Part shown: positions 5,064 to 22,084 of the stretch, one piece after another
Layout: each line of letters opens with the position of its first letter
Position numbering within the stretch: the stretch's first letter is position 1
Translations under genes and position numbers: made by a program
NCBI GenBank assembly: GCA_017409845.1
Contig: JAFQRY010000032.1
Location: 47,783-79,782 of the forward strand
DNA length: 32,000 bases
Reading direction: 5' to 3'
From: Clostridia bacterium
GTDB lineage: Bacteria; Bacillota; Clostridia; Oscillospirales; Acutalibacteraceae
The notes under the pieces: model-generated
What the model was told of the DNA's origin: nothing
Seen by the model: only the letters and a program-made list of their open reading frames with translations
The model's database searches: none

Positions 5064-6242
5064 TTATTTGCCGAACATCATAAGCAGGAAGCCTGCTGCA
5101 ACGGCTGAGCCGATAACGCCCGCAACATTGGGACCCATGGCGTGCATGAGAAGGAAGTTGGTGGGGTTATATTTTCTGCCCTCGGTCTGAGCAACACGGG
5201 CTGCCATGGGGACGGCTGAAACGCCTGCCGAACCGATGAGCGGATTGATTTTGCCGCCTGTAACAACATAGAGGAGCTTTCCGAAAAGAAGTCCGCCGAT
5301 TGTTGAGAAAGAAAAAGCGACAAGACCGAGAACAACAATCTTGATGGTGCTCCACTGAAGGAACTCCGTGCCGTTTGTTGTTGCACCGACGGTAACGCCG
5401 AGCATGATTGTTACGATATTGGTCAGTGCGTTCTGTGCGGTGTCGCTGAGTCTGTCGGTAACGCCGCAAACCTTGAGAAGGTTGCCGAACATGAGCATAC
5501 CGATAAGCGGAGCGGCATCGGGAATGAGGAAAGCAACAACAACGAAAACAACAACGGGGAAGATAACCTTCTCTGTTTTGCTGACTGTGCGCAGCTGCTT
5601 CATTTCAACCTTTCTTTCCTTCTCGGTTGTGAGAAGTTTCATAAGAGGAGGCTGAATGAGGGGGATGAGTGCCATGTATGAATATGCCGCAAGAGCGATG
5701 GGGCCGAGAAGATGGCCTGCGAGCTTTGAGGCAACGAGAATTGCTGTGGGTCCGTCTGCACCGCCGATGATAGCGATTGAAGCTGCTTCCTGAGGAGTAA
5801 AGCCGAGCAGGATTGCAATGATGAATGCAATATAGATGCCGAGCTGTGCGGCTGCACCTAAAAGAAGGCTTACGGGGTTTGCGAGGAGAGGACCGAAATC
5901 GGTCATTGCACCGATGCCGAGGAAGATGAGGCAGGGGAAGATTGAGCTCTTGACACCTGCGTAAATCAGTCTGAGAACGCCTGAGTCATACCAATGGGCA
6001 CCTTCAACAATGTTGGAGGTATCCATAAGACCCGTCGGGTCGTCCATCATGCCTGCACCGGGCATGTTTGCAAGAAGAATGCCGAATGCGATGGGAACGA
6101 GAAGCAGCGGCTCAAACTTCTTGACAATAGCAAGATAAAGGAACACAACGGAAACAAGAATCATAACGGCGTTCTGCCACTGAAGCAGGGCAAGACCCGA
6201 GCTTTCCCATATTCCCTTAAGGATTTCTAAAATAAAGTCCAT
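5064..6242 (-). CDS. oadB: Na+-translocating decarboxylase beta subunit (OadB/GcdB/MmdB family)
   Basis: 392-aa polytopic membrane protein. The N-terminus (LLQWQNAVMILVSVVFLYLAIVKKFEPLLLVPIAFGILLAN) and overall composition are typical of OadB. AAGGAGA RBS. It is the last gene of the oad cluster. Confidence 0.85.
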   Translation of the reverse strand: MDFILEILKGIWESSGLALLQWQNAVMILVSVVFLYLAIVKKFEPLLLVPIAFGILLANMPGAGMMDDPTGLMDTSNIVEGAHWYDSGVLRLIYAGVKSSIFPCLIFLGIGAMTDFGPLLANPVSLLLGAAAQLGIYIAFIIAILLGFTPQEAASIAIIGGADGPTAILVASKLAGHLLGPIALAAYSYMALIPLIQPPLMKLLTTEKERKVEMKQLRTVSKTEKVIFPVVVFVVVAFLIPDAAPLIGMLMFGNLLKVCGVTDRLSDTAQNALTNIVTIMLGVTVGATTNGTEFLQWSTIKIVVLGLVAFSFSTIGGLLFGKLLYVVTGGKINPLIGSAGVSAVPMAARVAQTEGRKYNPTNFLLMHAMGPNVAGVIGSAVAAGFLLMMFGK

Positions 6243-6253
6243 CGGTGTTCTCC

Positions 6254-6676
6254 TTAGCCGATAACTGCAAGAACTGCATCGGTCTCAACTGTTGAACCCT
6301 TTGAAACGAGAACCTGCTTGATTGTGCCTGCACAGGGAGCAACGATTTCGTTTTCCATTTTCATTGCTTCGAGAACGATGATAACATCGCCTGCGTTAAC
6401 TGTTGAACCGGGAGCAGCGTTGACTGCAAGGATTGTGCCGGGCATGGGAGCGGTAACATTTGTGCCGCCTGCAACGGGAGCTGCGGGTGCTGCTGCGGGA
6501 GCGGGAGCTGCTTCGGGAGCAGGTGCAGCTGCGGGTGCTGCAGGAGCTGCAACGGGTGCGGGAGCTGCAACGGGTGCTGCAACAACGGGTGCATCCGATA
6601 CGTTCATTATAACTGCCTGGGTTTCTTCAACCTCTACTTCATATGCTTTACCGTTAAGATTTACAACGTATTTCAT
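6254..6676 (-). CDS. biotin carboxyl carrier protein (stand-alone biotinyl domain of the decarboxylase)
   Basis: 140 aa. An Ala/Pro-rich linker is followed by a biotinyl domain with the EAMKMENEI biotin-attachment motif. The GGAGG RBS lies inside the end of the upstream gene. Confidence 0.9.
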
Positions 6677-6681
6677 AATAA

Positions 6682-7179
6682 TTATTCCTCCACTTTTCTG
6701 ATTGATTTGAAGCTGAGTCTTTCAAGCGGAATGCCGCTTTCTTTACTTACGATTGCCATTATTGTTGCCGCTGTGCGCTCGTCAACATCAACAAGCTCGG
6801 TTATGCCTCTGATTGACCTGAAAGCAAGTCTTTCGAGAGGAATGCCGCTCTGATTGCTTACGAGAGCCATGATAACTGCCGCTGTGGGCTCATCAACATC
6901 AATGAGCTGAGTTCTGCCTGCCGCATAAACGGCGGGAGCAGCGGCTGCGGGAGCTGCTGCAGGAGCAGGAACAACGGAAACGCTGTTTGCGGCATTTGCC
7001 GCAGCTTCGGAAGCCTCTGTGCCTTCTCCGCTGAGCTTGCCTTCAAGAGCACGGATAATCTTTGAGAGAAAAACAATGAGGACTGCAATTATTGCAAGCT
7101 CAAAAATAACTACCGCAATGCCTGCAACGGCAACGAGCAATGTTTCTTGCATGGTTAATGTGATTTTATCTGCAAACAT
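6682..7179 (-). CDS. oadG: OadG-like small membrane subunit of the Na+-pumping decarboxylase, with a duplicated C-terminal motif
   Basis: N-terminal TM helix ([25 protein letters not shown]), an Ala/Pro linker, then two 31-aa repeats [31 protein letters not shown]. The start is set at the ATG at 7179, where GAGG lies 9 nt upstream. The GTG at 7188 from the ORF track has no spacing to the SD. Confidence 0.7.
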
Positions 7180-7190
7180 ATTCGTCACCC

Positions 7191-8570
7191 TCAGTCAATT
7201 CTTGTGATTGTGTATGAGAATGTGTTCTTTCTGTCGGCTTCACGCTTCTCGAAGAAAGCTTCTGCCTGAGTGGGGAATGCGATATATGAAAGAACATCTT
7301 CTTCGCATGTTGCCTTGCTGCCGAGATATGCCTTTGCTTCTTCCATGCCGGGAGCAAGAGTATCTGCAAATCTGCCGGTATAAGGCTTTTCTTCGCCGAG
7401 AACGAGCTTCTGAAGCTCCTCGCTTACCTTGCCGGGAGCCTTGCCGTATTCGCCTTTGATGTAGCTCTTGACTTCCTTTGAAATGTTTTTGTATCTTTCG
7501 CCTGCAAGAACATTTGCGGTTGCCTGAACGCCTACCATCTGGCTCATGGGAGTTACAAGGGGAGGATAGCCGAGGTCTTCACGCACTCTGGGAGTTTCGA
7601 GAAGAACTTCGTCGAGCTTATCGAGCTTATTCTGTGCGGTGAGCTGTGCAACGAGGTTTGAAAGCATACCGCCGGGAATCTGATAGATGAGAGCATCTGT
7701 CTGAGTGCCCATAACAACGGGATTGAGAAGACCGCTGTCGAGTGCCTTTGCACGGATGGGCTTGAAGAAATCGTTGATTTCCTTGCAGATGTTTTCGTCA
7801 ACGTCAACATCGTAGCCGTACTGCTTGAGAGTGTAAACAAGAGTTTCGGTTGCGGGCTGTGAGGTACCGCCTGAGAAGCATGAGATAGCCGAGTCGATAA
7901 CATCTGCACCTGCTTCAACGCACTTGAGAAGTGTCATAAAGCCGAGACCTGTTGTTGAATGGGTGTGAACAACGATGGGAACTTTAACGTTTGCCTTGAG
8001 AGCCTTTACAAGGTCATAGCCTTCCTTGGGACTCATAATGCCTGCCATGTCCTTGATGCAGATTGACTGAACGCCGAGTGCTTCAATCTCTTTTGCGAGC
8101 TTAACATAGCTTTCAAGGTTGTGGATGGGGCTGAGTGTGTAGCAGATTGTGCCTGATGCGTGTGCACCGCACTTGAGAGTTTCGTCAACTGCTACCTCGA
8201 TATTGCGAACGTCGTTGAGAGCATCGAAAATTCTGATGATGTCGATGCCGTTTTCAACGCTCTTTCTGATGAATGCACGGACAACATCGTCGGGATAATG
8301 CTTGTAGCCGAGAAGATTCTGACCTCTGAGGAGCATCTGGAGCTTGGTGTTGGGGCAAGCCTTTCTGATGTTGCGGAGTCTTTCCCAGGGATCTTCGTTG
8401 AGGTAGCGCAGGCATGAATCGAAGGTTGCGCCGCCCCAGCATTCAAGTGAATAGTAGCCTGCCTTATCGAGCTTTTCAAGAACGGGCTTGAAATCCGAGA
8501 AAGGCATTCTTGTTGCGATGAGAGACTGATTGGCGTCTCTGAGCACGGTTTCTGTGAAATTAACTTTCAT
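7191..8570 (-). CDS. oadA: oxaloacetate decarboxylase alpha subunit, carboxyltransferase domain only (PycB/OadA-like, no biotinyl domain)
   Basis: 459 aa. Contains the N-terminal TETVLRDANQSL motif, the TIM-barrel HMGL-like pattern, VVHTHSTTGLG and a C-terminal association domain. The biotin domain is encoded separately at 6254-6676. Confidence 0.85.
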   Translation of the reverse strand: MKVNFTETVLRDANQSLIATRMPFSDFKPVLEKLDKAGYYSLECWGGATFDSCLRYLNEDPWERLRNIRKACPNTKLQMLLRGQNLLGYKHYPDDVVRAFIRKSVENGIDIIRIFDALNDVRNIEVAVDETLKCGAHASGTICYTLSPIHNLESYVKLAKEIEALGVQSICIKDMAGIMSPKEGYDLVKALKANVKVPIVVHTHSTTGLGFMTLLKCVEAGADVIDSAISCFSGGTSQPATETLVYTLKQYGYDVDVDENICKEINDFFKPIRAKALDSGLLNPVVMGTQTDALIYQIPGGMLSNLVAQLTAQNKLDKLDEVLLETPRVREDLGYPPLVTPMSQMVGVQATANVLAGERYKNISKEVKSYIKGEYGKAPGKVSEELQKLVLGEEKPYTGRFADTLAPGMEEAKAYLGSKATCEEDVLSYIAFPTQAEAFFEKREADRKNTFSYTITRID

Positions 8571-10167: not shown

Positions 10168-10770
10168 TTATTTGCGTCTGAATGCACGGATGTGTGCATG
10201 GATTTCAGCTGCCTGAGAGTCGTTAAGACCCTTTATGTCAATTGCTCCGAAATCGGTGATGAGAGTGAATCCGGGGTGAGAATCCGAGCTTCTTCTGGTC
10301 GTTGAAACCACGCTCATTCCGATGCCGTGAGTGTTGACTCTGACAATATCGTCGTAATAAACGATGAAATGCTTTGTGAAGCAGGGGATTTTTGCGGGAA
10401 TTCTGCCTTCAATGCAGTTTTTGTAAACCTCAACATAGCATTTTGAAGCAGTGATTGCGGCCAGAATTATATAAATAAGTGCAAGCACTCCTGCACACAT
10501 AATCACGGCATCGGCAAAACGGTTGTTGTTATCGGAAATCATAAGAAGAATCACATAACCCATCATTCCTGCAAGCGGAATCAGAACAAGCGGAAAGAGT
10601 ATATATTTGTAAAAATAATTTTTGCCCATGGTGAAAAATCTCAGGGATTTGCCTTTTTCACGGTCTGAATAATCGGGCACGGGCTCAAGAGGAGTTGATT
10701 TCAGCCTTCCGCATTCGGTGCAGAGATTATCCGAACGGCTCATTTTTGCTTTGCAGAATTTGCATTTCAT
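10168..10770 (-). CDS. zinc-ribbon / 2-TM membrane protein with a C-terminal cytoplasmic beta-rich (bacterial PH-like?) domain
   Basis: The start is set at MKCKFCKAKMSRSDNLCTECG (CxxC..CxxC), where GAGGTGA lies 5 nt upstream. Two hydrophobic helices follow, then an ~80-aa C-terminal domain. The ORF-track extension to 10821 has no RBS. Confidence 0.6.
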   Translation of the reverse strand: MKCKFCKAKMSRSDNLCTECGRLKSTPLEPVPDYSDREKGKSLRFFTMGKNYFYKYILFPLVLIPLAGMMGYVILLMISDNNNRFADAVIMCAGVLALIYIILAAITASKCYVEVYKNCIEGRIPAKIPCFTKHFIVYYDDIVRVNTHGIGMSVVSTTRRSSDSHPGFTLITDFGAIDIKGLNDSQAAEIHAHIRAFRRK

Positions 10771-10789
10771 TTTTATCACCTCTGATTTT

Positions 10790-10818
10790 AATATAGCAGA
10801 CAAATCGGTAACAGTCAA
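10790..10818 (-). promoter_or_regulatory. candidate sigma-A promoter of the Zn-ribbon membrane protein gene
   Basis: The minus strand reads TTGACT (10813-10818), 17 nt, TATATT (10790-10795). Confidence 0.5.
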
Positions 10819-10927
10819 CAAAACAATTCACTTTTCCACATTTCCGTCATCCTTCTTTTGAATGATTGATGATTTATTATAGTTGAATTATTATGATTAT
10901 ATTTATTATTACTTACGGTTGTTTTTC

Positions 10928-11350: not shown

Positions 11351-12004
11351 TTAATCATAAAAACGGTGAGATTCGTCAATGATTTCTGCACCGTTATCAG
11401 TAATTTTATAAGTTATTGTGATACCCTCTTTGCTGTTTCCCGAACTACCGTATGAAAAAGAAATCCAATAGGTTTCTCTTTCGTATTTATCAAACGGATG
11501 GACAACGGTAAAGGTTGTTTCGGCGTTGTTTGTGTCAGGATTATAAAGGACATATTCCGAATCTGCTACAGCAACATACCACGAACTGAATATGCTCGGC
11601 TTTTTCGCTTTTACGGTATAATCAAAATCATAATATTCGCCGGGAGCATAAACAGAAAGGTCATATGACTGCGGTGTATTCGTGTTATTACATACATAAT
11701 ATTTCTTTTCGTTGCCGTTTTTGTCCGTAAAAATAATGCTGCTGAATTCACCGCTTTGTGAGTCATGATAACCGAAGGATTTCGGACGGATATAAAAAAT
11801 CTGTTCATTTCCTCTGGTTTCGGTTTTGGCAAGCTGATAAATCTCGTCATCATAATTGCATTCCCAGACGATGCCGTTTTCAGGTTCATAGGGAAGAATG
11901 AACTCTGTTCTGTCGTTGCCTGTCATAAATCCGAAAATCATTTCGGGAATTAAGATAAACAGCATAATCGGGGTGAGAAGAAAAATCGTGAATGAAGCAC
12001 CCAT
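11351..12004 (-). CDS. hypothetical N-terminally membrane-anchored protein, paralogue B
   Basis: The start is set at MGASFTIFLL, with AGGAGA RBS upstream. One N-terminal TM helix. It shares EFILPYEPENGIVWE, GNEQIF, DYTVKA and LYNPDT blocks with the product of 12080-12790. Confidence 0.65.
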   Translation of the reverse strand: MGASFTIFLLTPIMLFILIPEMIFGFMTGNDRTEFILPYEPENGIVWECNYDDEIYQLAKTETRGNEQIFYIRPKSFGYHDSQSGEFSSIIFTDKNGNEKKYYVCNNTNTPQSYDLSVYAPGEYYDFDYTVKAKKPSIFSSWYVAVADSEYVLYNPDTNNAETTFTVVHPFDKYERETYWISFSYGSSGNSKEGITITYKITDNGAEIIDESHRFYD

Positions 12005-12079
12005 AGTATTCTCCTTTCTTTTGAACGCTATTTGGATAGTTCGCAATTTTTTGAATGAAACGCTGCTCCTGCAAATTTA

Positions 12080-12790
12080 TTAACTGATGTTGGAATTCAT
12101 CAATTCACCGGGAGTTGCAACCGGCAGATTATCTCTGAAAATAAGAGGGTCATTGGGTGTTGCAACGGGAGTGTCGCCCGTGAAATCAAACCATACATAG
12201 TGGTGTTCTTCATGACCGGCGGTTTCTGAACGGCATTCAAAATAACATCCGAATTCTTTTTCCTCGTTTTTGGGGAAAAGAATAACCGTGTGTGTTATTT
12301 CCGTACCTGTTGTGTCTGTGCTGTAGAGAATGTTTTCTTTATTTTTGCAATAAACATCAACAGACCATTCGCAATCCTCATTGCCGCAAACAGATTTTAC
12401 CGTATAATCTGTCACAACGCAGTCTTCTGCGGGTGCGATGATGACCTTATCATATATAAAGCCGTTTTCTGCATATGCATAATAGATGCGTGTTTCTCCG
12501 TTTTCAGCGGTAAAAACAAGGTCCATTACATAACCCTGTTTAATATCTGTTTTTGCATCCATACCTGTAAAAGAGAAAATCTGCTTGCCGTTTTCTGTTT
12601 TTGAGCTTGTAAGAATAACTGAAATATCGTTAACGCAGTCGTATTCCCAGATATATCCGCTTTCGGGCTCGTAAGGAAGAACAACCTCTGAGGTGTTGTC
12701 ACCGACTGCGATACCGAGAAATCCGAAAAGCGCCGAAGCAATTGCAAACACGGCAATTCCGCATATTGTAAAAAGTGTCATGAATACCAT
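12080..12790 (-). CDS. hypothetical N-terminally membrane-anchored protein, paralogue A
   Basis: The start is set at MVFMTLFTICG, with AGGAG 7 nt upstream. The ORF-track N-terminal extension MPSSRHQRKEKI is encoded by repeat copy B and is rejected. Collinear with paralogue B (EVVLPYEPESGYIWE, NGKQIF, DYTVKS, LYSTDT). Confidence 0.65.
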   Translation of the reverse strand: MVFMTLFTICGIAVFAIASALFGFLGIAVGDNTSEVVLPYEPESGYIWEYDCVNDISVILTSSKTENGKQIFSFTGMDAKTDIKQGYVMDLVFTAENGETRIYYAYAENGFIYDKVIIAPAEDCVVTDYTVKSVCGNEDCEWSVDVYCKNKENILYSTDTTGTEITHTVILFPKNEEKEFGCYFECRSETAGHEEHHYVWFDFTGDTPVATPNDPLIFRDNLPVATPGELMNSNIS

Positions 12791-12810
12791 AATTTTCTCC
12801 TTTCTTTGGT

Positions 12811-13056
12811 GGCGGGATGAGGGCATCCCGCCTTGATTTTTGATAAGTTAAAAAATCAATCCTCCGTCACGGCTTAAAGCCGTGACACCTCCTTTTCAAA
12901 GGAGGCTGATGTAACAGAAAGCTTTCTGTTATAATCAGACAAACTGTTTGGGCTCCTTTTATTAACTCCCTCAGTCTCGCTTTGCTCGACAGCTCCCTCA
13001 CGAGGGAGCCGTATTGCTGTCCGTAGGACTGAGGATTGGTGAATGCGAGAGCATTC
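12811..13056. repeat. copy B of the hairpin-dense modular intergenic repeat family
   Basis: GGCGGGATGAGGGCATCCCGC at 12811-12831 is identical to 1144-1164. The module CCTCCGTC-[ACGGCTTAAAGCCGT]-GACACCTCCTTTTCAAAGGAGG lies at 12861-12905. The palindrome AACAGAAAGCTTTCTGTT lies at 12912-12929. CTCCCTCAG..GCTCCCTCACGAGGGAGC lies at 12966-13009. GAATGC-GAGA-GCATTC lies at 13041-13056. Confidence 0.85.
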
Positions 13057-13090: not shown

Positions 13091-14686
13091 TTATCTTTCC
13101 AGACTGTCAATCAATTCAAAATGGTCAATGAAGAAATTCTGCGTTGCGTCTGCTTCGTTGCCCAGACCGATAACCTTGCCGTGGTCGCCGTCCTTTGTTT
13201 CGGCAACATTCCAGATGCCCCTTTGGATTCCGTCCATTTCTGCGATGGAATCCGTATATTCGATATAGGGTTCGTTGAACGGGTATCTTGCAGAAATAAC
13301 GCTCACAAGTCCGTCGTTTTCCTGCCATGCTTCGTCAATGGTAATTCCGCCTGCGGTTGTGCCCTTGAAGGAGCCCATTGCAAGTGCAAACGGATAAAGA
13401 ATGGGCAGGGTTGAGGTGTTGGGCACCTGACCTCTGAGAAGGGTGCCTGCCTTTGTTGTGCTGTAGGCATATGAGAAATAGTAAACGCCCTCAACCGTTC
13501 TGATTGTTGAGTTGAGTGCCGCCGCACCGTCGGGACTGAGGTCATATGCCGCGTGGTCGTTGCCTGCGGCAGTGATTTTGTCAATCGCACTTTCGGTGTT
13601 GCCGTCGGTTATTCCGAAATGGTCGAGCTTGAGGTCATAGATATTTTCGGCAGGCGATGCGATACCTGCAACGCCGAAGCAGAGGGTCATAAGAAGGTCG
13701 GTTGTGCTGCCGATGCCTACAAGACCGCCTACAGAATTGAGAACCTCGGTGAGCGATGAGCCGTTATGCGGTGCACAGAGGGTTGTTACGCTGTAAACCC
13801 AGTCACCCTTGCCGCCCGTGAAAAGCGGTGAGGTTTCTTCGCCCGTGAGAGCAACCTCGGCTTCGCTGCCGTATTCGAGAAGCGATGCAAGAAGTCTGAC
13901 GGTTGCACCGCCGAATGAATGGCCGAGAAGATTGATTTTTATTCTCTGACCGCCGTTGATTTTTTCGCCCCACTGAGCAACGAGCGGGGTATCGTATGTT
14001 CTGCCGTAGCGTTCGTGATTGTGTGCTTTTGAATGAGCCTCGCCGTAGTCAACGGTTGTGCCCGTAAGCTGTGCATAGAGCTCGCAGGTTCTGTCCCATG
14101 TGCTTGAAACGGGGCCCACACTCGGAGCATAAACTTCGTAGCCCTGCGAATTGAGCTGTTCGGTGAGGTTGCATGCGGTTGCTCCCCAATACTGAACGGT
14201 ATCGTTGACTCCGTCTCCCTCGCCCCATCCGCCGAGACCGTGAACGAGAACATAAGGATATTTGATTTTACCGCCGTTGAGCTCCCACCACGCTTCACGG
14301 ATTCCGCCGTAGTGAATGGGGATTGCAATAACCGTAATAATAACGCATATTGCAAGAATGGCGGCGATCGTTTTTATCAGCAGGCTGTTTTTGCCTTTTT
14401 TCGGTTTTTTGTTTTTAACGGGAACAGCGGGTGCAGGGTCGGAATATGCCGACTGCGGCTCTGCAGGTTCATTATTGAATGTTTCGGTTATATCCTCTTT
14501 CAGAAGATAGTCGGTAGAAACTCCGAAAAGCTCGCTCATTGCTATTATCTTATCGGTATCGGGAAGTGCACTGCCCGACTCCCATTTTGAAACGGACTGA
14601 CGGGATACTCCCATTGCCTCCGCAAATGATTCCTGAGAAAGTCCTTTTTCTTTTCTGAGTTTAATTATTTTGTCTGCAATACTCAT
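13091..14686 (-). CDS. XRE-family HTH / transmembrane / extracytoplasmic triacylglycerol-lipase-like (family I.5-like alpha/beta hydrolase) fusion protein
   Basis: The start is set at MSIADKIIKLRKEKGLSQESFAEAMGVSRQSVSKWESG, a canonical XRE HTH, with AGGAGG 7 nt upstream. One TM helix (LLIKTIAAILAICVIITVIAIPI). The lipase core shows YVLVHGLGGWGE, VGPVSSTWDRTCELYAQLTGTTVDYGEAHSKAHNHERYGRTY, the nucleophile elbow GHSFGG and TTLCAPHNGS. This closely parallels Geobacillus/Staphylococcus-type lipases. Confidence 0.8.
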   Translation of the reverse strand: MSIADKIIKLRKEKGLSQESFAEAMGVSRQSVSKWESGSALPDTDKIIAMSELFGVSTDYLLKEDITETFNNEPAEPQSAYSDPAPAVPVKNKKPKKGKNSLLIKTIAAILAICVIITVIAIPIHYGGIREAWWELNGGKIKYPYVLVHGLGGWGEGDGVNDTVQYWGATACNLTEQLNSQGYEVYAPSVGPVSSTWDRTCELYAQLTGTTVDYGEAHSKAHNHERYGRTYDTPLVAQWGEKINGGQRIKINLLGHSFGGATVRLLASLLEYGSEAEVALTGEETSPLFTGGKGDWVYSVTTLCAPHNGSSLTEVLNSVGGLVGIGSTTDLLMTLCFGVAGIASPAENIYDLKLDHFGITDGNTESAIDKITAAGNDHAAYDLSPDGAAALNSTIRTVEGVYYFSYAYSTTKAGTLLRGQVPNTSTLPILYPFALAMGSFKGTTAGGITIDEAWQENDGLVSVISARYPFNEPYIEYTDSIAEMDGIQRGIWNVAETKDGDHGKVIGLGNEADATQNFFIDHFELIDSLER

Positions 14687-14782
14687 GGTCAGCCTCCTTT
14701 GTGATTCAACCGAATTGTAGCTTGTTACGGCGGCGTTTTCAACCAATTCGGGTGTACATTTATAAAAAAGTTAAAATTTTTA

Positions 14783-14825
14783 TGTAAATATAAGTTTACA
14801 ATACCGTTGTAAAGCGGAGTTTACA
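14783..14825 (-). promoter_or_regulatory. two 18-bp palindromic operator-like sites (TGTAAA-N6-TTTACA) in the lipase-fusion gene leader
   Basis: TGTAAATATAAGTTTACA at 14783-14800 and TGTAAAGCGGAGTTTACA at 14808-14825, 7 bp apart. They start at about +1 of the promoter at 14832-14860. Confidence 0.6.
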
Positions 14826-14831
14826 TTGATT

Positions 14832-14860
14832 ATTTTATCATTACAGAAGAAAATAGTCAA
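14832..14860 (-). promoter_or_regulatory. candidate sigma-A promoter of the XRE-lipase fusion gene
   Basis: The minus strand reads TTGACT (14855-14860), 17 nt, TAAAAT (14832-14837). Confidence 0.55.
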
Positions 14861-14864
14861 TAAA

Positions 14865-14891
14865 AAACGGCGGCTGAGAAAAGCCGCCGTT
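14865..14891 (-). terminator. rho-independent terminator, distal copy of a duplicated 27-bp hairpin
   Basis: AAACGGCGGCT-GAGAAA-AGCCGCCGTT. The minus strand follows it with TTTTTTA. Identical to 15135-15161. Confidence 0.75.
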
Positions 14892-15134
14892 ACTGACTGT
14901 TGATAAACCTGATTTTTATATATAAACTGTAATTTGCTGTTTCGGCTCCCTCAAGAGGGAGCTGTCACGGAGTGACTGAGGGAGTTTCGGATTTTGTGTG
15001 AAACCATTGATTTGCAAAATAATTTCTATTGATAAACCCCTCCGTCTTTTGCTTAGCAAAATCCACCTCCCCTGAAGGGGAGGCAATTCTGTTGAGCGAC
15101 TTTTCAGATTCATATTGACTTTTTCGACAAACTG
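14892..15134. mobile_element. copy C of the hairpin-dense repeat family, a MITE-like 243-bp insert bracketed by the duplicated terminator
   Basis: Non-coding. It contains GCTCCCTCAAGAGGGAGC..CTGAGGGAG at 14945-14984, inverted relative to copy B. It also contains CCTCCGTCTTTTGCTTAGCAAAATCCACCTCCCCTGAAGGGGAGG at 15039-15083, very similar to copy A apart from a few substitutions and single-base indels. It is flanked by identical 27-bp sequences. Confidence 0.6.
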
Positions 15135-15161
15135 AAACGGCGGCTGAGAAAAGCCGCCGTT
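15135..15161 (-). terminator. proximal copy of the duplicated hairpin, 7 nt downstream of the mgtE stop
   Basis: Identical 27 bp, AAACGGCGGCTGAGAAAAGCCGCCGTT. The minus-strand tail here is TTCAGTTTG, a poor U tract. Confidence 0.5.
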
Positions 15162-16963: not shown

Positions 16964-17449
16964 TTGTTGCCAAAGAAACTTACCGAAAAGGAGCGGCTGT
17001 TCTGTTCTTATTATGCTCAGGGCGGCGATGCAAGAGGCTGTGCGGCACGGGCGGGATTTTCCCTGACCCCTCAGCGGAGTGCGGCAAGGCTTCTTGCAAA
17101 AAGCGAAATAAGGACGGAAATCATGCGGCTTGAAAGCGAAAGAAAAAATTCATCTGCCGTTGAAAGGGGGCTTCACCGCCTTGCGTTCGGGTCTGTTGCC
17201 GATGCACTCAGACTTTTGCTTTGCGAGGAAACGATGAGTGCTGAGGAAATCGAAAAGCTTGATTTCTTTAATGTTTCCGAAATAAAGCGGCCCAAGGGCG
17301 GGGGTCTTGAAATCAAGTTTTTTGACAGACTGAAGGCACTTGAAAAGCTTGAGAAGCTCGGCTCGGGAGAGGAGAAGCCGCAGAGCAGCTTCATTCAGGC
17401 TCTCTCGGAGGGTGCAAGGCTGATTTCTCGGGAGGATGAAGATGAGTAA
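16964..17449 (+). CDS. terS: phage terminase small subunit
   Basis: 161 aa with a TTG start and AAGGAG 5 nt upstream. The N-terminus LTEKERLFCSYYAQGGDARGCAARAGFS is the typical terminase-small HTH block. The 3' end overlaps terL. Confidence 0.8.
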   Translation: MLPKKLTEKERLFCSYYAQGGDARGCAARAGFSLTPQRSAARLLAKSEIRTEIMRLESERKNSSAVERGLHRLAFGSVADALRLLLCEETMSAEEIEKLDFFNVSEIKRPKGGGLEIKFFDRLKALEKLEKLGSGEEKPQSSFIQALSEGARLISREDEDE

Positions 17450-18722
17450 GTCCGATAAAAAGCAGGGCTTCACTCCGTTTTCAAAAAAGCAGATGAAAGC
17501 CCTCTGCTGGTGGATGCCGCAGAGTCCTCTGCATACGCATGATGCAATAATCTGTGACGGTGCGGTGCGTTCGGGCAAAACGCTCTGCATGTCCGTTTCG
17601 TTTGTTGCCTGGGCGTTCTCCGCTTTTTCGGACCGTTCCTTTGCTCTTTGCGGAAAAACAATTTCTTCTCTCCGCCGCAATGTTGTGACCGTCATTCTGC
17701 CCGTTCTGCGTGAGCTCGGGTTTGTGTGTGACGAAAAATATTCAAAGAATCTCATTGAGATTTCTTACGGCGGAGCAACAAACCGTTTCTATCTTTTCGG
17801 CGGCAAGGATGAAGGCTCGGCGGCTCTTATTCAGGGCATGACGCTTGCGGGTGTTCTGCTTGATGAGGTGACACTGATGCCCCGCTCCTTTGTTGAGCAG
17901 GCACTTGCGAGATGCTCCGTTGAAGGCTCAAAGCTCTGGTTCAACTGCAATCCCGAGCACCCCATGCACTGGTTCCATGAGGAATGGATAAAGAAAAGGG
18001 ATGAGAAAAACTGCTGCTATCTTCATTTTACAATGAAGGATAACCCTTCGCTTACACCTGCTATTATCCGCAGATACGAAAGGCTTTATTCGGGAGCGTT
18101 TTATGAACGCTTTGTGCTCGGAAGATGGGTTGCGGCACAGGGCTGCGTTTATCCGATGTTTTCGCAGGAAAAGCATGTGGTTCACCCTCCCTCACGCTTT
18201 GAGAAATACTATATTTCGTGCGACTACGGAACGGTTAATCCCTCATCCTTCGGGCTGTGGGGAGAAAGCGGCGGCGTGTGGTACAGAATCAGGGAATATT
18301 ATTTTGATTCACGCACCGAGGGCAGGCAGAAAACCGACAGCGAGCATTACGAGTCGCTTTGCACTCTTGCGGACGGACTGAAAATCGAGGCGGTGGTTAT
18401 CGACCCTTCGGCGGCAAGCTTTATTGAGTGCATAAGGCGTGACGGAAAATTCAGGGTCATACCTGCCAGAAACGATGTTGTTGACGGAATAAGAAGGGTT
18501 TCTGACTGCCTTAAGGACGGAAAAATTCTTTTTTCGCCTGAATGCAGGGCATCAATCAGGGAATTCGGTCTTTACCGCTGGGAGGAAAGCACGGCAAGGG
18601 ATACCGTGAGAAAAGAAAATGACCATGCAATGGACGATATCCGCTATTTTGTTTCAACCGTTCTGACGAAGGAGGATGATATCGGATTTTTCGCCCTTGC
18701 GGCAAAAAGGAAAGGGGGTTAA
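17436..18722 (+). CDS. terL: phage terminase large subunit (PBSX-like)
   Basis: 428 aa with Walker A CDGAVRSGKT, a Walker B-like LLDEV and a C-terminal nuclease domain. ATGA overlap with terS. Confidence 0.85.
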   Translation: MKMSKSDKKQGFTPFSKKQMKALCWWMPQSPLHTHDAIICDGAVRSGKTLCMSVSFVAWAFSAFSDRSFALCGKTISSLRRNVVTVILPVLRELGFVCDEKYSKNLIEISYGGATNRFYLFGGKDEGSAALIQGMTLAGVLLDEVTLMPRSFVEQALARCSVEGSKLWFNCNPEHPMHWFHEEWIKKRDEKNCCYLHFTMKDNPSLTPAIIRRYERLYSGAFYERFVLGRWVAAQGCVYPMFSQEKHVVHPPSRFEKYYISCDYGTVNPSSFGLWGESGGVWYRIREYYFDSRTEGRQKTDSEHYESLCTLADGLKIEAVVIDPSAASFIECIRRDGKFRVIPARNDVVDGIRRVSDCLKDGKILFSPECRASIREFGLYRWEESTARDTVRKENDHAMDDIRYFVSTVLTKEDDIGFFALAAKRKGG

Positions 18723-18725
18723 AAC

Positions 18726-19856
18726 ATGGGAATATTCAAAAACCGGAAGCCTTCAAGAGTTTCCGCACCCGTAACGCAGAATAAAAACAGACATCCGTTC
18801 GGGATTCTTGACGGTTATGTGCCGCTCGGAGTGCCGCAGCTGAGGCTTTATTATGCACTCAGGGAGGCTGTGCCCGTTATTGATGCGGCGATATTCAAAT
18901 TGGTCCGTCTTACGGGTGGCTTCAGAGTTGAATGCTCTGATTCAGAGGCACAGACTGCGGTTGATGAGTTCATTACTGATGTGCCCGTCGGAGGCAACAG
19001 ACAGGGTCTTTCCGCCTTTATTTCGACCTATTTTGAGCAGCTTCTGACCTGCGGCACGGCAATCGGAGAAATCGTTACGGACACGGACGGCGTGCCCCGT
19101 GCACTTTTTAATTCTCCGCTTGAAAATATCGAGCTCAAAAGACATAAAAACGGCTTTGATGTTGATATTTTCGTCAGAAACGGCACGGAGCTCCGTCGGG
19201 TTTCACAGCCCGGAATGTGTCTTCTGAGCGTGCTCAATCCCGAGCCGGGTGCACTCACGGGCAATTCGATGCTCAAGGGGCTTCCGTTTGTCAGCTCCGT
19301 GCTTCTGAGAATATTTGAGAGCATCGGTGCAAACTGGGAAAGGGTCGGCAATCTCCGCTTTGCCGTTACCTATAATCCGAAAAACGATGCGGTTGACAGA
19401 GCCTATGCGAAGGACAGAGCCCTGCAGGTTGCGAAGGAATGGGGCGAGGCGATGCAGAGCGGCTCGGAAATCAGGGATTTTGTTGCGGTCGGTGATGTTC
19501 AGATAAAGGTCATCGGTGCGGATAATCAGATTCTTGACAGCGAGGTGCCCGTGCGTCAGATGCTTGAGCAGATTGTTGCAAAAACGGGTCTGCCGCCCTT
19601 TATGCTCGGTCTTTCATGGTCGAGCACGGAAAGAATGTCGTCACAGCAGGCGGATGTGCTCACAAGCGAGCTTGAAGCCTACAGACAGCTTCTTACTCCC
19701 GTGATAAAGAAAATCTGCACTGTTTTTCTCAGGGGTAACGGATATCACTGCGGAGTAAAGGTTGTGTGGGATGATATCACACTTCAGGATGAGGTTGAAC
19801 AGAGCCGTGCTCAGCTTTACAGAGCACAGGCGGAAAAAATAAAGAGAGGTGAATAA
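18726..19856 (+). CDS. phage portal protein (call based on position and size)
   Basis: 376 aa, located immediately after terL and before the prohead protease. RBS AAAGGGGG. No motif recognised by eye. Confidence 0.6.
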   Translation: MGIFKNRKPSRVSAPVTQNKNRHPFGILDGYVPLGVPQLRLYYALREAVPVIDAAIFKLVRLTGGFRVECSDSEAQTAVDEFITDVPVGGNRQGLSAFISTYFEQLLTCGTAIGEIVTDTDGVPRALFNSPLENIELKRHKNGFDVDIFVRNGTELRRVSQPGMCLLSVLNPEPGALTGNSMLKGLPFVSSVLLRIFESIGANWERVGNLRFAVTYNPKNDAVDRAYAKDRALQVAKEWGEAMQSGSEIRDFVAVGDVQIKVIGADNQILDSEVPVRQMLEQIVAKTGLPPFMLGLSWSSTERMSSQQADVLTSELEAYRQLLTPVIKKICTVFLRGNGYHCGVKVVWDDITLQDEVEQSRAQLYRAQAEKIKRGE

Positions 19857-20716
19857 TTACGCAGGAAAACAAAACAAACACTCTGCCCGATGAGGAGCTT
19901 GAGCTTATCGGCAGATTCGCAAGAAAAAAGCTTTCGGACGAGGAGCTTTATACCTTTACGCTTATTCTCTGCGATAACGAAATCGACAGGGATAACGAAA
20001 AATTCACGGTTGCCGCACTTCATATTCTTTCTGAGCTTTTTGTTGGCAAAACGGGAATTTTTGACCACAACATGAAGAGCAGGGATCAGTCTGCGAGAAT
20101 TTATGCGGCGAAGGTTGTGACCGATTCATCGAGAAAGACTGCCGACGGCGAGGATTATACATACATCGAAGCCAAGGCATATATGGTCAGAACCGAAAAG
20201 AATAAAGACCTTATCACGGAAATTGATGCAGGCATCAAAAAGGAAACCAGCGTGGGCTGTGCGGTAAAGGATATAAGCTGCTCAATCTGCGGCAAAAACA
20301 TCAAAACGGAGGGCTGCGAGCATAAAAAAGGCAATGTTTACGGCGGAAAGCTCTGCTGTTATCTGCTCTCGGAGCCCACGGATGCATATGAATGGTCTTT
20401 TGTTGCCGTGCCTGCACAGAAGAATGCGGGCATCATCAAGTCATTCAGCCCTTCGCATGAAAAAGAGAAGCTTGCGGAGTGGGCAAGGGAATATACGGAC
20501 GAGCTCAGAACGGATATTGTCCGTGCGGCGGCAAGCGTTGTTCCCGCACTTCAGAGTGACGCATTGAGCGAAATCTGCGGTGCACTTTCAATCAAATCAC
20601 TCAGGGCTCTGCGTGATGCGTTACGCATGAGTGCACAGAAAAATCTGCCGGTTGTCAGACAGCTTGAAGCAGTTCAGCCCGATAACGGCAGTGAAAATTC
20701 GGAATATAAAATTTAA
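19856..20716 (+). CDS. prohead serine protease (HK97 gp4 / S78-like) with a C-terminal scaffold-like tail and a non-canonical (ATT?) start
   Basis: S78 blocks appear in order: DRDNEKFTVAAL, the catalytic-His block GIFDHN, the Ser block KETSVGCAV and EWSFVAVPAQKNA. The frame is open from 19853. The first two blocks lie upstream of the first ATG (20072), and there is no ATG/GTG/TTG between 19853 and 20072. GAGAGGTG is followed 4 nt later by ATT at 19856, which overlaps the portal stop as TAATT. Confidence 0.6.
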   Translation: MTQENKTNTLPDEELELIGRFARKKLSDEELYTFTLILCDNEIDRDNEKFTVAALHILSELFVGKTGIFDHNMKSRDQSARIYAAKVVTDSSRKTADGEDYTYIEAKAYMVRTEKNKDLITEIDAGIKKETSVGCAVKDISCSICGKNIKTEGCEHKKGNVYGGKLCCYLLSEPTDAYEWSFVAVPAQKNAGIIKSFSPSHEKEKLAEWAREYTDELRTDIVRAAASVVPALQSDALSEICGALSIKSLRALRDALRMSAQKNLPVVRQLEAVQPDNGSENSEYKI

Positions 20717-20729
20717 GGAGGAATAATTT

Positions 20730-21068
20730 ATGTCAGTATCATTCAGCGGATTCAACGAAAACACGGCAACCTTTAAGTCAAACGAAGAGATTGCGGGCGG
20801 AACACCCGTAAAAATGAGCGGAACTGAAACCGTTGCGGCTGCGGCGAGCGGAGAGGCTTTCTGCGGCATTGCGGTTGACGGCGACGGAGAGTATGCTTCC
20901 GTTCAGCTCAGCGGTGCCGTCAGGTCAAAATACAGCGGCACTGCTCCCGCGGCAGGTTATTCAAAGCTTGTTTCCGACGGCGAAGGCGTAACCGCATCCG
21001 AAAGCGGCAGAGAATATCTTGTTGTTGCGGTTGACGAGGCTGCAGAAACAGTAACATTCATTATTTAA
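20730..21068 (+). CDS. head decoration / capsid cement-like protein (DUF2190-like)
   Basis: 112 aa, Gly/Ala/Val-rich and beta-type, sitting directly upstream of the major capsid gene. AAGGAGG RBS. The assignment rests on size, position and composition. Confidence 0.5.
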   Translation: MSVSFSGFNENTATFKSNEEIAGGTPVKMSGTETVAAAASGEAFCGIAVDGDGEYASVQLSGAVRSKYSGTAPAAGYSKLVSDGEGVTASESGREYLVVAVDEAAETVTFII

Positions 21069-21079
21069 GGAGGAGAAAA

Positions 21080-22084
21080 ATGATTAACTATGATAATATC
21101 AGACTTGAAAAAGGACTTTATGCAACGGGTGATTTCACAAAAGCTCTCGAAAGCATCGACCCGAGCGAAAATTACAGAGGGACCTCTCTCGAAGGACTGG
21201 ACGCATATCAGCGTCAGCTCAAAAGATTTGAAATCAAGGTCGGCGGCACATCGAGCGATGTTGTTGATAAGTTTTTCAGAAGTTCCGAAAGCGCGGTACT
21301 ATTCCCTGAATACATCTCAAGAGCGGTAAAGCAGGGTCTTGAGCAGGCGGATATTCTTTCGGATGTAGTTGCTTCAACAACGGTTATCGACGGTCTTGAT
21401 TATCGCTCAATCAGCTCAATTCCCACCGAAGAGGAAAAGGAAATCAAGGTTGTCAAGGAGGGTGCATTCATTCCCGAAACAAGCATCCGCACCAAGGAAA
21501 ACCTTGTAAAGCTCAGAAAAAGAGGCAGAAGCCTTGTTGCTTCATATGAGGCGATCAGATTCCAGCGTCTTGACCTTTTTACCGTAACTCTCAGACAGAT
21601 CGGTGCATATATCGCAAGAACCCTTCTCAGAGATGCAATTGATGTGCTTGCAAACGGCGACGGCAACGGCAATGCGGCTGAGGTTGTGAGCTGTGCACAG
21701 CAGGGCACCCTTGCTTATTCCGATCTTGTTGATTTCTGGAACGGCTTTGACCCCTATGAGCTCAACACCATCATTGCAGACCCTGCGGTTATGGCACAGA
21801 TGCTCAACATGGAGCAGTTCAGGGATGCGGCTGCAGGTCTTAATTTCCACGGCAAGGGAGATATGATTACGCCTCTCGGTGCAAAGCTTCTCAAATCAAC
21901 CGCTGTCGGTGAAAACAAGCTTATCGGTCTTGATAAAACCGCAGCTCTCGAAATGGTCAAGGCGGGCGAAATCATGACGGAATATGACAAGCTTATTGAC
22001 CGTCAGCTTGAGCGTGCCGTTATCAGCTGCACCGCAGGTTTTGCAAAGATTTTTGACGGAGCATCAAAGGTGCTTTCCGTCTGA
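21080..22084 (+). CDS. phage major capsid protein (HK97 fold)
   Basis: 334 aa with AAGGAGG RBS. Position after the protease and decoration genes supports the call. Capsid-family-like blocks are VKLRKRGRSLVASYEAIRFQRLDLF and DAIDVLANGDGNGNA. Confidence 0.75.
   Translation: MINYDNIRLEKGLYATGDFTKALESIDPSENYRGTSLEGLDAYQRQLKRFEIKVGGTSSDVVDKFFRSSESAVLFPEYISRAVKQGLEQADILSDVVASTTVIDGLDYRSISSIPTEEEKEIKVVKEGAFIPETSIRTKENLVKLRKRGRSLVASYEAIRFQRLDLFTVTLRQIGAYIARTLLRDAIDVLANGDGNGNAAEVVSCAQQGTLAYSDLVDFWNGFDPYELNTIIADPAVMAQMLNMEQFRDAAAGLNFHGKGDMITPLGAKLLKSTAVGENKLIGLDKTAALEMVKAGEIMTEYDKLIDRQLERAVISCTAGFAKIFDGASKVLSV

Follow-up and report, generated by a model that had tools for sequence, protein, structure and literature searches.

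Can a lipase serve as the outer half of a transcription factor? This question is raised by a minus-strand gene in a 32,000-nucleotide stretch of DNA (the window) from a Clostridia bacterium of the Acutalibacteraceae (assembly GCA_017409845.1, contig JAFQRY010000032.1, positions 47,783 to 79,782). Its predicted product combines a helix-turn-helix (HTH) domain of the XRE/Cro-C1 type, a single transmembrane (TM) helix and a lipase domain, and two perfect palindromes lie in the promoter region of the gene. We think it rather probable that the protein is a membrane-bound, XRE-family one-component regulator that carries a catalytically competent family I.5/I.6-type lipase outside the cell and acts on its own promoter. 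An active lipase wired to a transcription factor is an arrangement that a specialist would not expect. We describe the architecture, the enzyme, its distribution and the putative operators in turn before weighing other explanations.

The open reading frame (ORF) occupies positions 13091-14746 of the minus strand. Its likely start is the ATG at 14686-14684, yielding a product of 531 amino acids, and the methionine equivalent to this ATG is the start in all orthologs. The gene and the parts of its product are as follows.

13091-14686, minus strand: coding sequence of the 531-residue HTH-TM-lipase protein, with the stop codon at 13091-13093 and the start ATG at 14686-14684 (ORF list, full-length orthologs).
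14693-14700, minus strand: ribosome-binding site AAAGGAGG, 7 nt before the ATG; (A)AGGAGG is kept before the start codons of orthologs.
14492-14686, minus strand: XRE/Cro-C1-type HTH, residues 1-65, with the recognition helix V27-SRQSVSKWE-36 (Pfam, AlphaFold2, Foldseek).
14393-14491, minus strand: low-complexity, predicted cytoplasmic linker, residues 66-98, with a predicted local distance difference test (pLDDT) score below 50, ending in the K-rich KNKKPKKGK.
14309-14386, minus strand: single TM helix, residues ~101-126, a predicted N-in/C-out signal anchor (hydropathy, AlphaFold2 helix).
13094-14263, minus strand: predicted extracytoplasmic lipase domain, residues 142-531, an I.5/I.6-like alpha/beta hydrolase with zinc-site motifs (Lip_C, 5AH0, Foldseek).

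Domain searches, hydropathy and structure prediction bore out the original prediction that HTH, TM helix and lipase share one polypeptide. Pfam assigned HTH_3 to residues 7-61 (E=6.2e-18, 65 bits versus a cut-off of 23) and Lip_C to residues 142-509 (E=6.1e-61, 207 bits versus a cut-off of 27), and HTH_19 and HTH_31 likewise exceeded their cut-offs on the N-terminal domain. PDB matches of the first 65 residues were the P22 c2 repressor and ImmR. The AlphaFold2 model, based on 34 relatives (mean pLDDT 77.7), consisted of a confident HTH, a disordered linker at residues 66-98, a TM helix at residues 101-126 and a lipase fold whose lid is of low confidence. Its HTH comprises five helices (residues 3-13, 18-25, 29-37, 44-54 and 58-62; pLDDT ~90), which Foldseek superposed on P22 c2 and ImmR with template modeling scores of 0.89-0.92 and a root-mean-square deviation of 1.0-1.3 Å, and on P22 c2-operator complexes with a deviation of 1.2-1.3 Å. 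Across the alignment of the 34 relatives the recognition helix VSRQSVSKWE is invariant, and the linker, variable in both length and sequence, is the only poorly conserved part.

The hydropathy profile contains one hydrophobic segment: in a Kyte-Doolittle scan with 19-residue windows and a threshold of 1.6, windows exceeding the threshold started at residues 98-112 only, with a maximum of 2.89. The 17 residues preceding this segment include six K/R and no D/E. A cleavable signal peptide was not found, as the N-terminus is the HTH and the sole hydrophobic segment is internal (~101-126). From the positive-inside rule and the lack of a signal peptide we infer an N-in/C-out topology with a cytoplasmic HTH and the lipase outside; unless processed, the lipase would be anchored in the membrane and not secreted. 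The TM helix has no helix-breaking residue before Pro123, and a gap of ~15 residues (HYGGIREAWWELNGG) separates it from the first strand of the lipase.

Searching the PDB with the C-terminal 390 residues returned PfL1 of Pelosinus fermentans (5AH0, E=3e-72, residues 142-512), EstA of Clostridium botulinum (5AH1, E=6e-66) and further matches to the Geobacillus T1/L1/T6 and Staphylococcus lipases. Foldseek aligned the lipase domain with I.5/I.6 lipases at template modeling scores of 0.79-0.86. The lipase motifs quoted in the original prediction were all found, with HGLGGWGE at residues 149-156, VGPVSSTWDRTCELYAQL at 190-207, TVDYGEAH at 211-218 and GHSFGG at 255-260. Alignment with 5AH0 and 5AH1 also located the codons of a complete catalytic triad.

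13916-13918, minus strand: nucleophile Ser257 (GHSFGG), aligned with the GHSMGG serine of 5AH0/5AH1.
13313-13315, minus strand: catalytic acid Asp458 (NDGLV), aligned with NDGVV of 5AH0/5AH1.
13181-13183, minus strand: catalytic base His502 (GDHG), aligned with DH of 5AH0/5AH1.

All three residues are unchanged in the 34 aligned relatives, in keeping with the competent enzyme that had been proposed. The same is true of D198 (WDR), H218 and H224 (AHxxxHxH) and D382 (YDLS), which lie in motifs common with PfL1. By motif, these four residues are putative zinc ligands equivalent to Asp61, His81, His87 and Asp238 of the L1/BTL2 site. PfL1 and EstA possess the family I.5 zinc-site domain, and the triad of Cbotu_EstA (5AH1) is Ser182/Asp384/His426 (PMC5829244); the Ser-Asp and Asp-His spacings are 201 and 44 residues in the window protein versus 202 and 42 in Cbotu_EstA. 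The staphylococcal YSIRK lipase model NF047351 stayed below its cut-off (239 versus 650 bits) and matched over profile positions 331-678 only, that is, the catalytic part. The ectodomain is thus apparently a catalytically competent family I.5/I.6-type lipase. In family I.5 lipases, large lid movements expose a hydrophobic surface (PMC5829244).

So unusual an architecture might simply be an assembly or sequencing fusion of two adjacent genes, an explanation favored by nothing other than its a priori oddity. The survey across genomes that had been suggested decided the matter. The best 120 of 6001 database matches cover 100% of the query at 57-93% identity, and all 120 carry both HTH and Lip_C; they come from Clostridia or Ruminococcaceae metagenome-assembled genomes (MAGs) and are labeled only 'helix-turn-helix domain-containing protein'. 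A scan of one genome per GTDB species found 80 loci, of which ~76 encode the full 1-531 architecture at 44-94% identity, with start, TM segment and lipase collinear throughout the orthologous loci. With the same continuous, collinear ORF in at least 120 independent protein clusters and ~77 loci from many studies and hosts, an assembly artifact can be ruled out for practical purposes. Carriers belong to the Acutalibacteraceae, the Oscillospiraceae, 'Ruminococcus sp. CAG:488' and Candidatus Fimenecus, and the loci stem from goat, deer, buffalo, sheep, horse and other gut samples. The nearest relative of the window is an Acutalibacteraceae MAG (locus L001, 94% identity).

Relatives of either half occur separately as well. 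Loci L044 (4004-5320), L062 (3935-5362) and L093-L096 encode HTH-less lipases, 50-59% identical, that consist of a short non-HTH N-terminus, a TM anchor and the lipase. As the anchored lipase comes without the HTH in these relatives, the HTH must have been gained or lost on an otherwise self-sufficient enzyme. A search with residues 1-128 for other ectodomains on the same HTH and TM helix returned mostly contig-end fragments, proteins made of HTH and TM helix only, and a 72-residue paralog. Clostridiales MAGs also encode a family of proteins of ~137-141 residues (P0144, P0147, P0151 and P0179) in which an acidic linker joins a closely related HTH (SRQA helix, ~76% identity) to a single TM helix, and the outer domain is lacking. 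In L081, a separate 72-residue HTH gene (6001-6219) lies directly upstream of a 70% identical fusion (6216-7787) and overlaps its start by 4 nt; the arrangement recurs in L082. As the free HTH has the same recognition helix, this lineage encodes a soluble and a tethered copy in one operon.

If the HTH binds DNA, where would it do so? The region upstream of the gene contains the following elements.

14866-14891, minus strand: GC-rich hairpin, terminator of the upstream mgtE gene (terminator scan), kept in L001; it forms the upstream boundary of the unit.
14832-14860, minus strand: predicted distal promoter P1, TTGACT-17-(TG)aTAAAAT, with the -35 at 14860-14855 and the -10 at 14837-14832; 10/12 match plus TG extension.
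14808-14825, minus strand: putative operator O1, TGTAAA-CTCCGC-TTTACA, a perfect palindrome that begins 6 nt after the P1 -10.
14783-14800, minus strand: putative operator O2, TGTAAA-CTTATA-TTTACA, a perfect palindrome and the positional counterpart of the site in single-operator orthologs.
14741-14758, minus strand: O3, TGTACA-cccgaa-TTGGTT (TGTACAcccgaaTTGGTT), a degenerate, operator-like sequence that includes the first 2 nt of the P2 -35.
14714-14742, minus strand: predicted proximal promoter P2, TTGAAA-17-TACAAT, with the -35 at 14742-14737 and the -10 at 14719-14714; 10/12 match, predicted start near 14707.

O1 and O2 are the two perfect TGTAAA-N6-TTTACA palindromes of the original prediction, exact at the positions claimed and 7 bp apart. 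The 32-kb window holds no other match, even with one mismatch (0.08 expected), and the two-site layout at 25-bp spacing is common to L001, L002, L005, L008, L028 and L030. Upstream of the 77 fused loci, 53 perfect palindromes fall within 25,026 nt, where 0.28 are expected (~190-fold enrichment), compared with only seven in the remaining 630,964 nt of these loci. At least one perfect site is present in 52 loci, mostly 99-150 nt ahead of the start codon. The half-sites are constant and the 6-nt spacer is variable, even between the window and the 94%-identical L001, and the site frequently extends to TGTAAAC-N4-GTTTACA.

The palindrome also changes with the recognition helix. Among the 78 loci with an S/T-R-Q-S/T helix, 70 have a TGTAAA site (one mismatch at most), and an alternative GCAAC-N5-GTTGC site occurs at none of the 78; conversely, the five loci with an SRQA helix (S31A) have no TGTAAA site, and all five carry GCAAC-N5-GTTGC at the same place. 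Neither palindrome is present at loci with SCRS or SVQS helices, and none was found upstream of the HTH-less lipase relatives (L044, L062, L093-L096). In these comparative tests, the palindromes appear to behave as operators of this HTH.

Several variants of the upstream region were observed alongside. The SRQA loci (L029, L035, L037, L057 and L083) share CGCAACC-N3-GGTTGCG at about -106 to -110 from the start codon, with core half-sites one base closer together than in TGTAAAC-N4-GTTTACA, and the SCRS-helix loci (L085-L089) have a different sequence, AGCAGAgTCTGCT, at the operator place. L066, L069 and L075 (4315-4332) and L070 (427-444) contain a perfect palindrome inside the coding sequence at +315, where it encodes VKPxLH; it is kept in these four species (88-90% mutual identity) despite a variable acidic linker and may be an intragenic auxiliary operator. 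Finally, an operator-plus-promoter module (palindrome, T-rich spacer, AAACTAAAGTTGATAGAC) is duplicated in L052 (2632-2749 and 3699-3760) and L054 (3703). In L052, one copy precedes a secreted DUF5104 gene (2749-3627) and another stands in tandem before the HTH-lipase gene; nothing but the DUF5104 copy hints at a regulon that reaches past the gene itself. The separate HTH gene, the +315 palindrome and the L052 module would each fit a DNA-binding role.

The promoter named in the original prediction, TTGACT-17-TAAAAT, held up as a 10/12 match with a TG extension, but this P1 is restricted to ~22 loci of the closer clade (at least 63% identity) and absent in distant clades. The universally conserved promoter is P2, located between the palindromes and the start codon; essentially every one of the 78 loci has an equivalent, whether or not P1 or a palindrome is present. 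In most closer-clade loci the operator lies 5-8 nt past the P1 -10, a repressor-type position. Directly upstream of the P2 -35 is a conserved block with the family consensus AAATGTAAACCnAAgTTGnTTGAAA, in which the left half-site TGTAAAC is kept and the right half is reduced to (G)TTG. The TTG, which 76 of 78 loci have at a distance of 2-4 nt upstream of the -35 hexamer, is better conserved than that hexamer itself. Taking the P2 start as 7 nt after the -10, O3 is centered near -42.5 and overlaps the -35 by two bases, and the main operator lies ~75-85 bp upstream of the predicted start. The claim of an autoregulatory layout therefore stands in that the operators occupy the gene's own promoter region, but not in the simple form of operators at +1, since P2 and O3 are present as well.

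Distances between operators and P2 show some regularity. The main-operator center is 39-43, 48-52 or 59-64 bp from the P2 -35 in 32, 22 and 8 loci, respectively, giving three clusters ~10 bp apart that correspond to about 3, 4 and 5 helical turns from O3. In the window, the O2 center is 49 bp from the P2 -35, within the 48-52 class, and O1 is 25 bp farther upstream. The DNA between the main operator and P2 is T-rich. Helical phasing of the operators relative to P2 is suggestive only: Rayleigh R is 0.67 at 10.5 bp, yet 0.55-0.65 at 8.5-10 bp, and the three clusters consist of related sequences. The layout as a whole suggests a graded, phased operator array.

In the mechanism that we propose, a cytoplasmic HTH would be tethered via a flexible linker of ~35 residues to a single signal-anchor helix, with the lipase on the outer face of the membrane, ~15 residues off the bilayer. 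An HTH dimer would recognize the 18-bp palindrome TGTAAAC-N4-GTTTACA, whose 7+4+7 geometry we presume to be the same as in P22 c2 operators. Binding at O1 and O2, both overlapping the start of the strong P1, and at the weaker O3, which abuts the P2 -35, would let the protein control its own synthesis. Occupancy of O1 and O2 would shut P1, and the position of O3 at about -42.5 could allow either occlusion of P2 or activation in the manner of lambda cI. More speculatively, the state of the ectodomain (interface substrate, lid opening, lipid clustering or fatty-acid product) might alter the oligomerization of the tethered HTH and render expression lipid-responsive, with clustering or dimerization of the ectodomain on a lipid surface relayed to the HTH through the single helix, comparable to VtrA. 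Coupling of expression to lipid is plausible. That the active lipase is the sensor of its own substrate, such that lipid engagement leads to HTH dimerization, cooperative operator loading and a switch from P1 to P2, is a possibility that we consider less likely than not. Given the ~15-residue gap, the enzyme would sit on the outer leaflet, below the cell wall, a placement that would make amphiphilic or membrane-partitioning esters (mono- or diacylglycerols, lysolipids), or lipids of the cell itself, more likely substrates than bulk triglyceride droplets.

Several points weigh against this interpretation of the protein. It is doubtful that an enzyme ~15 residues from the membrane and beneath a Gram-positive wall would reach bulk triglyceride. 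XRE domains of 65 residues usually depend on a partner for dimerization, and none was identified. DNA binding at the membrane, topology, enzyme activity, autoregulation and any dependence on a signal are all predictions from sequence. The co-variation of helix and operator rests on few clades; members of the SRQA group are related and GC-rich, so that it is confounded with both shared descent and base composition. At eight loci whose helix is of the SRQS/T type, no site was found within one mismatch, and a contig end cuts one of these loci. The palindrome of distant clades follows the upstream stop codon and, with complementary flanks and a T-run, is terminator-like. Further operator sites were not found in the 32-kb window, hence a regulon is not definable from it.

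What else could explain these features? The protein might be a self-limiting enzyme that senses nothing, its HTH autoregulating a fixed dose of an anchored scavenging lipase without any information passing from ectodomain to HTH. XRE repressors most commonly serve simple negative autoregulation, the operators do sit in the gene's own promoter, the neighborhood reveals neither a conserved partner gene nor a regulon, and the existence of HTH-less anchored lipases implies that the enzyme works alone. For this purpose, however, a soluble repressor would suffice, and the linkage seems to matter, given that the tether has been retained through sequence divergence of over 40%; moreover, the dual-promoter, three-site, helically spaced layout exceeds the needs of simple feedback, and L052 has its second operator-plus-promoter module before another secreted-protein gene. 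We judge an enzyme without sensing to be unlikely, though deserving of serious weight. It is also conceivable that the palindromes are RNA or terminator hairpins (an attenuator, or the terminator of the upstream gene) and that the HTH is a RodZ-like protein-interaction or anchoring domain that binds no DNA. An XRE-type HTH on a membrane anchor can indeed serve protein binding, as in RodZ, and the distant-clade palindrome, for example gcgTGTAAACtcaaGTTTACAcgcttttttt, may double as a terminator. Yet the stem sequence is invariant, without compensatory change, and it is the loop or spacer that varies; palindrome positions 7 and 12 are often non-complementary; and, at 6 bp of A/U, the stem is weak. 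Relative to shuffles the fold of the leader has z=-1.05, its minimum-energy structure forms neither palindrome as a hairpin of its own, and the real mgtE terminator in the window is a separate, GC-rich hairpin. Since, in addition, the site switches with the recognition helix and is absent where the HTH is absent, we regard hairpins as a very improbable explanation. A known RNA element in the leader was rejected as well, as Rfam returned none above the gathering score and the fold was no better than shuffles.

The linkage of the two domains could alternatively serve regulated release: full-length protein would be an inactive membrane precursor, and a site-2-protease-type cut near the TM helix would free the HTH, similar to RsgI and CadC. 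A long disordered linker next to a single TM helix resembles substrates of intramembrane proteolysis, and L081 and L082 show that a free 72-residue HTH carrying this recognition helix is viable when encoded by a gene of its own; RsgI of Clostridia, which is cut by RseP, provides the precedent (PMC12203970, PMC10328401). Against release, neither an autoproteolytic (SEA-like) module nor a protease partner adjoins the gene, the TM helix contains no helix breaker until Pro123, and characterized HTH-type membrane regulators, BcrR among them, work without leaving the membrane (PMC3968067). Release thus appears improbable, and a regulator that acts from the membrane on its own promoter is the reading we prefer.

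How does such a regulator compare with known systems? In its domain content, the window protein falls under the formal definition of a transmembrane transcription regulator (a DNA-binding domain plus at least one TM region) in a survey of 50,302 such proteins, where HTH is the commonest DNA-binding domain and single-pass the commonest topology (PMC10269533). According to the same survey, the general class of membrane-bound one-component HTH regulators is already known and common; the new part is the enzyme input domain together with the predicted operator code. ToxR, TcpP, CadC, VtrA and BcrR likewise unite a cytoplasmic DNA-binding domain and TM segment in one polypeptide with its other end outside, but ToxR, CadC and VtrA have OmpR-type winged helices and not an XRE domain. 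No described transmembrane regulator is known to have a complete lipase-family enzyme as its outer domain, and the survey mentions neither lipase nor hydrolase domains (PMC10269533). There is precedent for a lipid-like signal, as a fatty acid acts on TcpP through TcpH (PMC11323476), and for activation by oligomerization, as in VtrA (PMC5693285). The nearest studied XRE-type member is BcrR, the bacitracin sensor of Enterococcus faecalis, likewise a Firmicute protein with an N-terminal XRE-family HTH that acts from the membrane and, with no partner kinase, binds its ligand itself; it has no obvious extracellular domain and regulates a separate transporter operon (PMC3968067). BcrR spans the membrane several times, whereas a single TM helix carries an ecto-enzyme of 390 residues in the window protein, whose operators lie in its own promoter.

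The closest functional analogy, an enzyme family sensing its own substrate class, is RsgI of Clostridium thermocellum, also a clostridial single-pass protein, with an outer module, substrate-binding or enzyme-like, that is directed at an insoluble nutrient, and a cytoplasmic part that controls the matching degradative genes (PMC10328401, PMC12203970, PMC6852018). RsgI differs in that it binds a sigma factor and not DNA, needs autoproteolysis and RseP cleavage, and senses polysaccharide; Pfam found no RsgI_N/SEA-like domain in the window protein, and the neighboring genes are mgtE and small membrane proteins, not sigI. The I.5/I.6 lipases (Geobacillus T1/L1/BTL2, PfL1 5AH0, EstA 5AH1 and those of Staphylococcus) match over the whole catalytic domain at ~35% identity and template modeling scores of 0.8-0.86, sharing the GHSxGG elbow, the Ser-Asp-His triad, the zinc-site motifs and the lid region. 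They are secreted via cleavable signal peptides (YSIRK plus propeptide in staphylococci), whereas here an uncleaved anchor would follow a transcription-factor domain.

On the DNA-binding side, the lambdoid repressors (P22 c2, 434 and lambda cI) share the HTH fold and several tandem palindromic operators of graded quality, and the overlap of O3 with the first 2 bp of the -35, centered near -42, is what we take to be the geometry of OR2 at PRM. Unlike these repressors, the window protein has no C-terminal dimerization/S24 protease domain, no divergent lytic promoter, and a membrane anchor; its operator spacings are 25 bp and 32-45 bp, versus 23-24 bp in lambdoid systems. RodZ has the same order of parts, namely an N-terminal XRE-type HTH, a linker, one TM helix and an extracytoplasmic C-terminal domain, but its HTH binds MreB and its C-terminal domain is DUF4115, in place of which the window protein has Lip_C. 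Neither a DUF4115 match (Pfam) nor an mreB neighbor was found in the window, and the conserved, co-varying palindrome argues for DNA binding rather than a RodZ-like role. As for the suggestion that the architecture is undescribed, no paper on an HTH-lipase fusion was found in the open-access literature, where absence is not proof of absence.

The order mgtE-(gene)-proS, kept in 16 close loci, is the only conserved synteny around the gene, with zero to three small membrane proteins between the gene and proS; no conserved operon partner was found around the gene, and the small membrane proteins have no Pfam or PHROG match. In the window, three paralogous minus-strand proteins of 217-248 residues (12080-12826, 11351-12046 and 10168-10821) each have an N-terminal hydrophobic anchor and share an LPYEPE(N/S)G(I/Y)(V/I)WE motif. 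Between the mgtE stop and P1 lies a non-coding insertion of ~270 bp (14865-15161) that L001, although 94% identical, lacks. Two 27-nt copies of the mgtE-terminator hairpin, identical in sequence (AAACGGCGGCTGAGAAAAGCCGCCGTT), delimit it at 14865-14891 and 15135-15161, and it holds the hairpins CCTCCCCTTCAGGGGAGG and GCTCCCTCAAGAGGGAGC; an inverted second copy of the GCTCCCTCAAGAGGGAGC hairpin and its flanks occurs just downstream of the lipase gene (12992-13009). The insertion looks like a small terminator-targeting mobile or repeat element. Beside mgtE, a phage-like head module on the plus strand (16964-22084) encodes a small terminase, a large terminase, a portal (phrog_30703, E=3e-131), phrog_16951 and a major head protein (phrog_3922, E=1e-97). 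The order terminase-mgtE-lipase is kept in at least 16 species, which speaks for the remnant of a long-resident prophage, or for a gene-transfer-agent-like element, and against a recent prophage.

Among membrane-bound one-component regulators, ~57% have no recognizable input domain and very few have been studied, according to the survey (PMC10269533). Here, both ends are interpretable: the output site is predictable by comparative genomics, and the input is an easily assayed enzyme with a known lid switch, so that one can test directly whether extracellular catalysis or interfacial activation is signaled via one TM helix to a DNA-binding domain. In the guts of ruminants, horses and other hosts, where the organisms responsible for lipolysis and its regulation are poorly known, the family is common among Acutalibacteraceae and Oscillospiraceae, and database labels that name only the HTH hide its lipase nature from functional profiles. 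If the lipase does act as the sensor, this protein would be the first transcription factor with an active lipase as its input, a single-protein circuit on its own gene that is widespread in gut Oscillospirales.

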